Below are positions 1-5,018 of a DNA stretch of 5,018 bases, in pieces. Under the pieces are notes generated by a model. The model did no database searches. It saw only the letters and a program-made list of their open reading frames with translations, and was not told the DNA's origin. The position numbers and the translations under genes were made by a program. Origin of the DNA: a virus (Duplodnaviria > Heunggongvirae > Uroviricota > Caudoviricetes); IMG/VR virus record IMGVR_UViG_2634166492_000001; one strand, written 5' to 3'. Each line of letters opens with the position of its first letter. Positions within the stretch are counted from its first letter, which is position 1.

Positions 1-37
1 AAGATAGGGTCCGCAGGATGCTCAGGGCCGTGTCTCT

Positions 38-73
38 TGAAGTGGTCAACAAAAACTGGCCACCGAGTTAGAG
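38..73. repeat. IS911-like right terminal inverted repeat (IRR); inner boundary approximate
   Basis: Plus strand TGAAGTGGTCAACAAAAACTGGCCACC pairs with the reverse complement of the other end; the orfB stop (TGA at 46..48) lies inside it, as is usual in IS3-family elements. Confidence 0.75.
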
Positions 74-966
74 TTTTTCCAGTATCGATTTTCCGATTCG
101 TTTGGGGGTAACCCACCGTTATATTCGTGCGGTCTTAGTGCGCTGTAATATCCAACGATATAGTCCGTTATGGCGTGAGCTGCCTCGCTGAAGCTTACGT
201 AACCCACCACCGGCATCCATTCGTTCTTCAGACTCCTGAAGAAGCGTTCCATTGGGCTGTTATCCCAGCAGTTTCCGCGCCGGCTCATACTCTGTCTGAT
301 CTGGTATCGCCACAATAACTGCCGGAACTGCCTGCTCGTATAATGACTGCCCTGATCGCTGTGGAACATCACCCCGCCGGGCTTACCACGGGTTTCCCAT
401 GCCATTTCCAGCGCTTTCATGGTGAGCCTGCTGTCCGGCGAGAACGACATGGCCCAGCCCACTGGTTTTCTTGCGAACAGGTCGAGAACAACGGCGAGGT
501 ACGCCCAGCGCTTACCCGTCCAGATATAGGTCACATCACCGCACCACACCTGATTTGGCTCGGTCACGGCGAACTGCCTTTCAAGGTAGTTAGGGATAGC
601 AACATGTTCATGACCACCACGTTTATACCGGTGAGTCGGCTGCTGACAGCTGACCAGCCCCAGCTCTTTCATGAGCCTGCCAGCAAGCCAGCGTCCCATC
701 TGGTAGCCTCTCCGGGTTGCCATTGTGGCGATGCTTCTTGCTCCGGCCGAACCGTGGCTGATGCCATGTAGCTCAAGTACCTGACTGCGTAATACAGCCC
801 GTCTGCCGTCTGGTTTTTCAGGACGGTTTTTCCAGTATCTGTAGCTGCTGCGATGAACCCCGAACACATGGCAGAGTGTGACCACAGGATAATGCGCTCT
901 GAGTTTCCCGATTATCGAGAACTGTTCAGGGAGTCTGACATCAAGAGCGCGGTAGCCTTTTTTAAT
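46..966 (-). CDS. IS911-type OrfB (DDE transposase catalytic domain); normally expressed as an OrfAB fusion by -1 frameshifting
   Basis: Frame is open from the ATT at 966..964 to TGA at 48..46 and is -1 relative to orfA; the track shows the GTG-initiated part 46..885 (279 aa). DDE-type motifs are present ([24 protein letters not shown]). The in-frame ATT directly upstream of the slippery heptamer fits the AUU-initiated OrfB described for IS911. Confidence 0.85.
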
Positions 967-1214
967 ATTTCATTCTCCATTTCAATGCGTTGTAGCTTTT
1001 TCCTGAGCTCACGGATTTCAATTTGTTCCGGGGTAATGGGGGAGGCTTTTGGTGTTTTGCCCTGACGCTCATCACGCAGTTGTTTGACCCATCTTGTCAT
1101 TGTGGAAAGGCCAACATCCATAGCTTTGGCGGCATCTGCCACCGTGTATTTCTGGTCAACAACCAGTTGAGCGGATTCGCGTTTAAACTCTGCGCTAAAA
1201 TTTCTTTTTTTCAT
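912..1214 (-). CDS. IS911-type OrfA (helix-turn-helix transposase regulatory subunit, 100 aa)
   Basis: ATG at 1214..1212 is preceded by an AGGTG Shine-Dalgarno on the minus strand; stop TAA at 914..912. The track ORF 912..1250 has an N-terminal extension that runs into the IRL and is less likely. Leucine-heptad C-terminus ([23 protein letters not shown]) is typical of IS3-family OrfA. Confidence 0.9.
957..963 (-). other. Programmed -1 ribosomal frameshift heptamer A AAA AAG linking orfA to orfB
   Basis: Minus strand reads ATGGAGAATGAAATATTAAAAAAGGCTACC: heptamer A-AAA-AAG in the orfA frame (L-K-K), with a GGAG Shine-Dalgarno-like element about 11 nt upstream, as recalled for IS911 recoding. 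Confidence 0.8.
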
Positions 1215-1250
1215 TGGAGCACCTGTGTTGTTCTGAGGTGAGCATATCAC

Positions 1251-2526: not shown

Positions 2527-2535
2527 GGGGTAATC

Positions 2536-3867
2536 ATGGCTACTTGGCAAGGATCAAATGGCGGATTGTTAGCTGGTATCGGCGGCGTCAACTCAAACGC
2601 TCCGAACGTAAATGACATCGGCAATACGCTTCAGCTTATCAGGCAGAACAATGATATTGAGCGTTCAGGCGCTAACAATGTTGGGCTGACTGCTTTGCAA
2701 GGCCTTTCAGGTATTGCGGGGGTGTTTCAGCAGGAAAAGCAGGCTCAGCGGCAGAAAGAATTTCAGCAGGCGTACGCTAATGCTTATGCGTCTGGTGATC
2801 GCGGTGCTTTGCGTCAGTTGGCTACTCAATATCCAGACCAGATTGAATCCGTTCGTAAAGGCATGGGATTCATTGATGAAGACCAGCGTAATTCTATCGG
2901 CACCTTAGCGGCTGGCGCACGCCTTGCGTCATCGTCTCCAGAAGCAATGCAATCATGGCTGCAAAACAACGCCGGTGAGTTAGCTCGTGTTGGCGTTAAT
3001 CCTCAGGACGTCGCTCAGATGTACCAACAGAACCCGCGGCAGTTCGGCGAATTTGTCGATCACCTGGGGATGAACAGTCTCGGACCCGAAAAATACTTTG
3101 ACCTACAGGATAAAATGCAGGGTCGCCAGGTTACCATGCGCGGTCAGGACCTGGATTCGCAAACCGCCGCTCGGAATCAGGCAATCACAATGCGCGGGCA
3201 AGATATCCAGGCGAATTTAGGTCAGCAGCGCATTAATCTGGACGCAGAAACAAACCGCATTAACAACGAAAATAAGCGCCTTGACCGGATGCTATCAGCA
3301 GAAACTAACGACCTGAAGCGCCAGGAAATACAGAGCCGCATAGCAGCCAACAACCAGCAGTTGCAGCAGAAGCAGCAAGCGCTAAATGATGGCTACAAAG
3401 ACGGCATCAACACCCTCACAACCAGCATGTTCACTCTGAACGATATCGTTAGTTCTCCTTCACTTAAGAGCATTACAGGCTTACGTGGAGTAATCCCCAA
3501 CGTTCCAGGCTCACAGGCTGCAGACACTCAGGCACGACTTGATACCTTTAAATCCCAAGCATACCTGACAGCGGTTCAGGCCATGCGAGGCATGGGCGCA
3601 CTTTCTGATGCCGAGGGCAAAAAGCTCGACCAGGCTGTTGGTTCGCTGCAGAACTCGCAGAGCGAGGAGTCCTTTCGTCGCAACGCTGGCGTCATCCTGA
3701 ACACGCTCAACCAGAAGCGTAATGAGGCGGTTGGTAAGTACGTTCAGCAAAACGGTATCAAGCGAGTGGAAGCGCCTCAGGCTTCTATAGATTACCTGAA
3801 GCAGCACCCCGAGCTGTCAATCGACTTCATTAATCGCTACGGATATCTTCCATCTTTGGGGCAGTAA
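2536..3867 (+). CDS. DNA-ejection (E) protein, P22 gp20-like (443 aa)
   Basis: ATG at 2536 with AAGGGG upstream; stop TAA at 3865..3867. Q-rich, predicted coiled-coil protein in the gene 20 position; P22 gp20 is about 471 aa from memory. Confidence 0.8.
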   Translation: MATWQGSNGGLLAGIGGVNSNAPNVNDIGNTLQLIRQNNDIERSGANNVGLTALQGLSGIAGVFQQEKQAQRQKEFQQAYANAYASGDRGALRQLATQYPDQIESVRKGMGFIDEDQRNSIGTLAAGARLASSSPEAMQSWLQNNAGELARVGVNPQDVAQMYQQNPRQFGEFVDHLGMNSLGPEKYFDLQDKMQGRQVTMRGQDLDSQTAARNQAITMRGQDIQANLGQQRINLDAETNRINNENKRLDRMLSAETNDLKRQEIQSRIAANNQQLQQKQQALNDGYKDGINTLTTSMFTLNDIVSSPSLKSITGLRGVIPNVPGSQAADTQARLDTFKSQAYLTAVQAMRGMGALSDAEGKKLDQAVGSLQNSQSEESFRRNAGVILNTLNQKRNEAVGKYVQQNGIKRVEAPQASIDYLKQHPELSIDFINRYGYLPSLGQ

Positions 3868-4473
3868 ATGGCTAATTACCGTGATTTGTTAGAGCAGGCT
3901 GGCGCACGTTACGGTGTGCCAGAAGGGTTGATGACTGCACTGGGTGCCAAGGAGTCTTCTTACAACCCTGCCGCAGTAAGCTCCGCCGGGGCTGTAGGAT
4001 TGACTCAGGTCATGCCTGGGACATGGCGTGATATGGGTTATACCGATGAGCAAATGCAAAACCCCGAATATCAGGCTGACGCTGGCGCGCGCTATCTGGC
4101 AAAGATGTACCAGCAGTTTGGTAACTGGCGTGACGCTCTTCAGGCTTATCACGACGGTCCCGGCAACGTTATGAAGGCAAAGCGTGGTGAATATACGCCA
4201 GGACCTGAAGGCCGCGGTTACGTTGATGATCGCTTTGCTCAATGGGCTGGTGACCCGGTGACAGACTCAACAGTCGAACAGCGCGCCACCTCTGCAAAGG
4301 TACATCCTCAGCAAGACCCTAACAACCCGTTTGCACAACTGGAAGTACAGTCATCCGAACAAGTATCGGCATCAGGTGTGCAGTCAGACCCAAATAATCC
4401 ATTTGCTCAGATTGAGCAGCAGGCAGCCAGTCAGCATGCCTTCGCAACTCTTCACTATGGCGCGTTCTTTTAA
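3868..4473 (+). CDS. SLT-domain lytic transglycosylase (201 aa) in the third ejection-protein (gp16) slot
   Basis: ATG at 3868 directly abuts the previous stop (TAAATG). Family-1 lytic transglycosylase motifs are readable: [24 protein letters not shown] (E-S ... GLxQ, catalytic Glu at 3952..3954) and [10 protein letters not shown] (AYNxG-like). C-terminal third is low complexity with two DPNNPFAQ repeats. Confidence 0.85.
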
Positions 4474-5018
4474 AGCCGTAGCCAATGGCAAAATTTATAT
4501 CGGAAAAATTGACACTGACCCGGTAAATCCTGAAAACCAGATTCAGGTTTATGTAGAGAATGAAGACGGATCTCACGTCCCTGTTTCTCAGCCAATTGTT
4601 ATCAATGCTGCCGGATATCCTGTGTACAACGGGCAGATTGCCAAATTTGTAACTGAGCAAGGCCATTCAATGGCTGTATATGATGCGTATGGTTCGCAGC
4701 AGTTCTATTTTCAGAATGTGCTGAAGTACGATCCTGATCAGTTAAAGCAGTTACTTCAATCAGATGAAGGAGCTGCTCACATTGGCACTAATAGCGGAAA
4801 AAATCTCCAAGAGGAGCTATTTGCAATAAAAAATGAAATATATCAAGACCCGCTTACATCGTGGCCTTTCGGTGGAACATTAAAAATAAAGCAAGGGGTG
4901 TACGATATCGCGTCACCACTCGTTCTTGATTACGGCAACTATGACGCTAAATTTATTGGTTCGACAGGAGTCCGTGCTCATTATTCCGGAGAAAATATGG
5001 CAGAAACGATATTTAACT
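4436..5018 (+). CDS. Tailspike protein, 5' part (P22 gp9-type head-binding domain then divergent receptor-binding module); continues beyond window
   Basis: Translation ...[48 protein letters not shown]...[27 protein letters not shown] aligns almost residue for residue with recalled P22 gp9 residues about 10-113. No stop before 5018. Start is ambiguous (ATG 4436, ATG 4457 or TTG 4412); the frame is open back to 4262. Confidence 0.9.

Follow-up and report, generated by a model that had tools for sequence, protein, structure and literature searches.

The window analysed here, a stretch of 5,018 bases that makes up the entire draft contig AMWM01000449.1 (assembly GCA_000826695.1), is very probably the distal late-operon end of a defective SfX prophage of Shigella flexneri. 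It carries two lesions: a copy of the insertion sequence (IS) IS911 that abuts the remnant of the tail-needle gene, and a 2,600-bp deletion that joins an ejection protein gene to the tailspike gene. It can be said with similarly high confidence that the locus cannot supply a functional virion, as the needle gene is destroyed and the gene in the position of P22 gene 16 (the gp16-slot gene) is truncated. P22 needs every one of genes 26 (needle/plug), 16 (ejection protein) and 9 (tailspike) to make infectious particles, and for this reason none are expected from the locus. A defective prophage is one in which at least one virion-essential gene is lost or disrupted; here, such losses affect the needle gene, the gp16-slot gene and the start of the tailspike gene. 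Direct observation covers the identity of the genes, the two breakpoints, the microhomology and the reappearance of the deletion junction in independent assemblies.

A preliminary description of this DNA had proposed a decayed prophage that probably cannot build infectious virions, and this proposal is borne out. With 29 codons of the needle gene remaining, an ejection protein lacking 79% of its length and a tailspike gene lacking its Shine-Dalgarno (SD) sequence and 11 residues, the prophage is almost certainly non-infectious. The same description had counted three independent lesions. There are only two, because the single 2,600-bp deletion gave rise to both the short gp16-slot open reading frame (ORF) at one end and the N-terminally short tailspike at the other.

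The layout of the window was derived from a listing of its ORFs and from Pfam scans. A minus-strand IS3-family element is followed on the plus strand by ORFs with matches to DUF2824, P22_gp7, Inj_translocase, SLT and Head_binding, in that order. This layout is that of the distal end of a P22-like (Lederbergvirus) late operon: the genes for the needle, gp14, gp7, gp20, the third ejection protein and the tailspike follow one another in the expected order and belong to the matching protein families. The window is collinear in the late operon with Sf101, Sf6, IME10 and Dewey, and its DNA is 96-98% identical to that of the induced or lytic phages Sf101, IME10, Dewey, Huey and phiKp_30. Sf101 was induced from S. 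flexneri 7a and forms plaques (PMC4159516).

The assignment to SfX comes from related contigs that extend beyond the window. Sister contigs with the same deletion (L005-L007) run from a tailspike gene that is complete to its stop codon into a minus-strand gene for a 421-amino acid (aa) membrane protein (L005 3239-4504). This protein shares 100% identity with GtrX, the glucosyl transferase of Shigella phage SfX (accession L05001.1), and because of this identity the element is classified as the SfX prophage of S. flexneri. In the longer contigs L017 (16247-18801) and L020, gtrX is followed by gtrB and gtrA, such that the gtrA-gtrB-gtrX cassette that marks SfX lies downstream of the tailspike gene in contigs outside the window. 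SfX, which glucosylates the O-antigen, is a podovirus that is inducible from S. flexneri strain 2002017 (serotype Xv), converts the serotype of its host and integrates at thrW next to proA (PMC3306764). Contigs L013 and L017, in which the IS911/needle junction is the same, show the thrW-proA location; the left flank of the window is different. An intact gtrX gene, together with gtrB and gtrA, just downstream of a damaged tailspike gene indicates that the serotype-conversion cassette is kept while the virion genes decay.

The 2,600-bp deletion and the genes that it truncated

Window positions 1376-4440 align to Sf101 from gp14 through approximately codon 190 of gp13. Positions 4430-4834 align 2.6 kb further along in Sf101, starting from tailspike codon 10. 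Among the relatives without the deletion, S. flexneri contig L020 is the closest (99.87% identity to the left of the junction and 100% to the right). In L020, the missing segment is flanked by the heptamer GTCAGCA (3142-3148 and 5742-5748, 2,600 bp apart), of which the window retains one copy (4430-4436). Such a pattern is the signature of an illegitimate deletion (by slippage or microhomology).

Through the deletion, the gene for a 911-aa SLT-domain ejection protein runs on after codon 189 into tailspike codon 10, in a different frame. Codons 190-911 of the SLT-headed protein (722 codons, 79% of its length) were removed, together with a minus-strand gene for an Arc/Mnt-type repressor, the tailspike GGAG SD sequence and the N-terminal tailspike codons. 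The resulting 201-aa ORF consists of 189 native codons, which cover the SLT domain and a linker, and 12 codons from the tailspike gene read out of frame. This exact fusion product is found in the NCBI contig and in five separately assembled Logan runs (ERR6004689, ERR6004691, ERR6004925, ERR6004928 and ERR6005117), and one contig among these runs recurs in five samples. A 552-aa S. flexneri "tail spike protein" is also present as a database entry. From the recurrence of the fusion product in six independent assemblies, the deletion is concluded to be real and clonal. The junction was not found in 50,697 phage records, in which every long match was split into two pieces, nor was it found in 5,426 complete E. 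coli genomes, the GTDB representative genomes or IMG/VR. It is lineage-specific and confined to a small clone, and a common gene form is excluded. The preliminary description had regarded the presence of these gene forms in lytic isolates as evidence against decay; none of the 50,697 phage records has the fused form, and the genes of Sf101, Dewey, IME10 and phiKp_30 are all full-length.

The SLT domain of the 201-aa ORF is found at residues 7-110 (91.7 bits, cut-off 21.3) and the sequence includes the catalytic Glu-Ser motif AKESSYNP. The ORF has the family-1 lytic transglycosylase signature, and its enzymatic activity is putative. According to the preliminary description, the protein in the gp16 slot is about a third the size of P22 gp16. 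The short ORF is real, but P22 gp16 (609 aa) is the wrong yardstick: the full homologue has 911 aa. The size comparison is misleading because the third ejection protein is of an SLT-headed 800-900-aa type, with full-length homologues of 911 aa in Sf101, 875 aa in Dewey and 797 aa in phiKp_30, and is marginally similar to Sf6 gp13 (the gp16 homologue according to the Sf6 record; BLASTP: 25% over 404 aa, E-value: 0.017). The P22_gp16 domain was not found in Sf101 gp13 using a local copy of Pfam. The lost C-terminal part may nevertheless be homologous to P22 gp16, as suggested by its position and by precomputed PF26808 hits for 797-aa and 576-aa variants. The SLT-headed ejection genes are mosaic: the 797-aa variant (L014 11333-13726) and the 911-aa variant (L020 2580-5315) are alike only over the first 618 nt and the final ~450 nt, with unrelated sequence in between. 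On the left, the mosaic boundary falls at codon ~206, near, yet not at, the deletion endpoint (codon 189).

On the other side of the junction, the preliminary description had noted a tailspike without its conserved N-terminal codons, and this is correct. What is now the first in-frame ATG (4436) encodes the residue that is Met12 in the intact protein (a second candidate start, also ATG, is found at 4457), and the Head_binding profile is matched only at positions 12-113 of 113. The window tailspike gene thus encodes an incomplete head-binding domain and is without its native start codon. MSDIAANVVVS, the stretch missing from the protein, is conserved in Sf6, Sf101, IME10, L014, L017 and L020, and the upstream GGAG SD sequence is conserved in relatives and absent in the window. 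In the sister contigs, the tailspike frame reaches a stop codon, giving 559 aa from Met12 as compared with 570 aa for the intact protein (full ORF in L005). In Dewey (L003 8251-8346), the tailspike coding sequence is annotated as starting 32 codons before the conserved MSDIT start, so that the protein gains a hydrophobic stretch at its N-terminus; the start codon in this record is probably mis-called.

IS911 and the tail-needle gene remnant

The preliminary description had reported an IS cutting an upstream late gene, and an intact IS911 (38-1286) is indeed found against a needle gene remnant (1287-1376). The element is 100% identical over 1,249 bp to the annotated IS911 of S. flexneri plasmid pCP301 and other pINV plasmids, in agreement with the size of about 1,250 bp and near-identity to the reference expected for IS911. 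It encodes orfA (912-1214) and orfB (46-885) on the minus strand, with the domains HTH_Tnp_1 and rve, respectively. The two are in a -1 frame relation, with an A6G slippery site (AAAAAAG, 957-963) inside their overlap. The terminal inverted repeats are imperfect and begin TGAAGTGG; they were missed by a repeat finder with a 9-bp seed, and hence the two ends were aligned by hand. This copy of IS911 looks intact.

The right end of IS911 directly adjoins a segment coding for FLASNGSTLTIQSNGAAFTATTIKIIAEQ followed by a stop codon. At the DNA level, this segment matches the 3' end of the needle-knob genes of Sf6 and phiKp_30 (Sf6-type) with 94-95% identity, and its translation matches exactly the C-terminal 29 residues of the 282-aa needle protein of L016 (S. 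flexneri 8401). The needle stop codon overlaps the gp14 start. At the window locus, 90% of the needle gene is gone.

The left side of IS911 is of different origin. Positions 1-37 have no match in any P22-like locus, and searches of E. coli genomes, phages, plasmids, GTDB representatives and IMG/VR gave either nothing or 34/37 positions at best. This best match is to E. coli Jnd12 (L012 6001-6037), in an intergenic region near a Rha-family regulator gene in an island next to ynfF. A metagenome scan with a query that included the IS end gave no match for the left flank, while 37/37 matches were found in metagenome contigs L023 (10561-10597) and L024 (2844-2880), in which the sequence continues uninterrupted. 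No 3-bp target-site duplication of IS911 was found (flanks TCT/TTT in the window and CTT/TTT in L017, in which the same IS911 is at 7503-8751). Because there is no such duplication and the flanks are from different elements, IS911 marks a rearrangement or deletion breakpoint. The window's left flank is either the product of a further IS911-IS911 recombination in the strain or part of a chimeric draft contig joined across a multi-copy IS.

A simple insertion of IS911 inside the needle gene was also considered and is rejected on account of the left flank from another element and the missing target-site duplication. The lack of a 3-bp duplication in both the window and L017 is consistent with this IS911 copy having mediated left-side deletions more than once.

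The features of the window are listed in Table 1. The gp14 homologue has the same length in the window, Sf101, Sf6, Dewey and L014, an apparently complete P22-like prophage, and the window's gp20 homologue is identical in protein sequence to that of L014.

Table 1. Features of the 5,018-base window
Feature	Position	Strand	Basis and remarks
IS911 left flank	1-37		neither needle-gene nor integrase sequence; exact match to an intergenic stretch of an unrelated integrative element
Complete IS911 (IS3 family)	38-1286	-	100% identity over 1,249 bp; Pfam HTH_Tnp_1 and rve
Tail-needle gene remnant (P22 gp26 / Sf6 gp9 homologue)	1287-1376	+	last 29 codons and stop
gp14 homologue, intact, 151 aa	1376-1831	+	Pfam DUF2824, E-value: 5e-53
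Ejection protein gp7 homologue, intact, 230 aa	1834-2526	+	Pfam P22_gp7, 1-230 of 230, E-value: 1e-134
Ejection protein gp20 homologue, intact, 443 aa	2536-3867	+	Pfam Inj_translocase
Truncated gp16-slot ejection protein, 201 aa	3868-4473	+	Pfam SLT; collinear with Sf101 gp13 and L020 up to 4436-4440
Deletion junction, single GTCAGCA copy	4430-4436	+	side-by-side alignment with L020
Tailspike without SD sequence and codons 1-11	4436-5018	+	N-terminal alignment; runs off the contig end

Decay in related prophages and alternative explanations

The IS911/needle junction of the window is identical in the complete genome CP054892.1 (L013) and in a 1.18-Mb S. flexneri contig (L017), which are 99.86-99.89% identical to window positions 37-4440. 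The gene order in both is proB, proA, tRNA (thrW), a truncated minus-strand integrase gene, IS911, an 88-bp needle remnant and gp14 onward. Missing between int and the needle gene are the immunity, replication, lysis, terminase, portal, scaffold, coat, gp4 and gp10 genes, and the late promoter region is also absent. The preliminary description had looked to the integrase, terminase, portal and coat genes for signs of decay beyond the window, and such signs are evident in these two relatives: the integrase is truncated, and the head and early genes are absent.

Decay is also evident in the genes downstream of IS911. The SLT gene has a CAA-to-TAA nonsense codon at position 238 (Q238*) in L013, L017, L020, L021 and L022 (L020 3291-3293). 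A frameshift, considered because the gene appears as two ORFs in sister contigs, was rejected, as a gap-free alignment shows this single nonsense codon. From the presence of Q238* in undeleted sisters, the SLT ejection gene was probably already dead before the 2.6-kb deletion. In other S. flexneri and E. coli assemblies, the tailspike is cut to 207, 275 or 328 aa by independent truncations (L022 6803-7426; P0033, P0035, P0036, P0037 and P0041), and in L013 it is wholly deleted. S. flexneri 8401 (L016, CP000266.1, 1-21332) carries a fuller SfX-like remnant that spans the genes from terminase to gp20; a different IS interrupts its SLT gene at codon 576. This remnant is directly followed by a myovirus-type (SfV-like) set of head and tail genes, indicating two prophages in tandem. 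The pattern across the sisters is one of progressive, lineage-by-lineage neutral decay around a retained gtr cassette. Decay of the same kind has been described for SfI, SfII, SfIC and Sf101 remnants (PMC5596473, PMC7565858).

The proposed course of events is as follows. An IS911-associated deletion would have removed everything from int to the needle gene, including the early, lysis, terminase, portal, coat and plug genes; this step is proposed because the truncated integrase gene by thrW/proA adjoins the same IS911 in the closest long contigs. In the sublineage of the window, an illegitimate deletion of 2,600 bp occurred between the two GTCAGCA repeats. The virion genes that remain would now be neutral debris, retained solely through their position between the IS and the gtrABX cassette, which is under selection.

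Several points weigh against this interpretation. The state of the prophage beyond the window is read from the relatives L013 and L017 and not from the source strain. The window's left flank (1-37) belongs to another element and includes no integrase sequence, and so the upstream arrangement in the source strain may differ. The needle and head genes could in principle lie elsewhere in the draft genome as a result of IS911-mediated inversion rather than deletion, and the 37 bp could be a chimeric assembler join across the multi-copy IS. In addition, no stop codon interrupts gp14, gp7, gp20 or the 559 codons left of the tailspike gene. Because these frames are still open, the decay is recent.

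If the junction or the IS911 flanks were assembly artefacts of the draft genome, the true locus could be intact. A short draft contig that crosses a multi-copy 1.25-kb IS and ends 37 bp past it in sequence of an unrelated element is typical of a chimeric join. The deletion junction, however, is in unique sequence, and a 7-bp repeat is too short to collapse an assembly. With the identical 201-aa product in five independently assembled Logan runs, the 552-aa S. flexneri tailspike entry and the reproduction of the IS911/needle junction in CP054892.1 and L017, an intact locus is very unlikely, and doubt remains for the 37-bp left flank only. It is still less likely, to the point of being barely credible, that an active P22-like phage naturally uses the short SLT ORF and short tailspike as a functional module variant, comprising a stand-alone lysozyme-like ejection protein and a tailspike with an alternative start. 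Such a variant would fit with the complete SLT domain, the tailspike frame that is open for 559 codons and the known mosaicism of gp16-slot genes (L014 vs. L020). The last 12 codons of the SLT ORF are nevertheless tailspike sequence read out of frame, and relatives that are 99.9-100% identical on both sides hold the 2,600 bp, bounded by the 7-bp repeat. The junction is in no phage record, complete E. coli genome or IMG/VR contig searched, the conserved GGAG SD sequence and MSDIAANVVVS are gone, and the adjoining needle gene is destroyed regardless.

The preliminary description had also suggested that the SLT protein and tailspike could still be expressed and act on the host envelope. A domesticated remnant of this kind, in which the SLT fragment, the tailspike (an O-antigen-cleaving enzyme) or both are kept and expressed for envelope remodelling or phage exclusion, is very unlikely. 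Neither the catalytic SLT domain nor the receptor-binding part of the tailspike is interrupted, and both genes adjoin the selected gtrABX cassette. However, no plus-strand sigma-70-like promoter was detected in the window, the tailspike gene has no SD sequence, and inspection of the N-termini (no prediction tool was run) revealed no export signal or signal peptide in either protein. The IS911 transposase genes do not point towards the phage genes but in the opposite direction. In sister lineages, the SLT and tailspike genes have been knocked out by a variety of changes (Q238* in the former; the latter cut to 207, 275 or 328 aa or missing), as expected for neutral decay and not for purifying selection. 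The suggestion of expression is thus not supported by the evidence. A more specific version, that the deletion made a new translationally coupled pair, is highly doubtful. As the stop codon of the SLT fragment (4471-4473) overlaps the tailspike frame, a free tailspike impaired in head binding and a soluble SLT domain might be made in the lysogen and retained beside gtrX for O-antigen trimming or superinfection exclusion.

Comparison with known prophages

The erosion of serotype-converting prophages of Shigella flexneri by IS elements and small deletions is already known, and the present finding is an ordinary example of it. Beyond annotation, its significance is small: it is one more step in a well-described process of prophage erosion in which gtrABX is retained. 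Where assemblies list a 201-aa "lytic transglycosylase" and a 552/559-aa "tail spike protein", the correct annotation would be fragments of pseudogenes that go back to one deletion, and the junction at 4430-4436 is a clone-specific marker for a S. flexneri sublineage. SfX release is not to be expected from strains of this lineage.

The window element resembles SfX in having a P22-like podovirus late operon, a 100% identical GtrX (in sister contigs) and thrW downstream of proA (in related long contigs). SfX of strain 2002017 is inducible, whereas the window copy is without the needle gene, 79% of the gp16-slot gene, the mnt-like gene and the tailspike start, and its relatives are also without everything between int and the needle gene. 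Sf101 (KJ832078 / NC_027398), which among sequenced phages is nearest to the window in this region, is 98% identical at the DNA level over gp14, gp7, gp20 and the first 190 codons of gp13, and 99.5% identical over the tailspike head-binding region. It also has the same injection-module architecture (ORF11-13; PMC4159516). Unlike the window, Sf101 has a full 911-aa gp13, the small minus-strand gene and a 580-aa tailspike with its own start. Its needle is P22-type (Sf6-type in the window), it has oacB instead of gtrX and it integrates at sbcB.

With respect to P22 itself, gp16, gp9 and gp26 have counterparts in the same operon positions, including a tailspike with a Head_binding domain, but the third ejection protein of the window differs from P22 gp16 in being of the SLT-headed 800-900-aa type. 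The element has undergone the same process as the cryptic S. flexneri prophages SfI, SfII, SfIC and the IS-flanked Sf101 remnants, in which IS-associated loss of structural and early genes has also left the O-antigen cassette in place (PMC5596473, PMC7565858). It differs from these in being SfX-type, in still having five late genes and in carrying a clone-confined 2,600-bp deletion.

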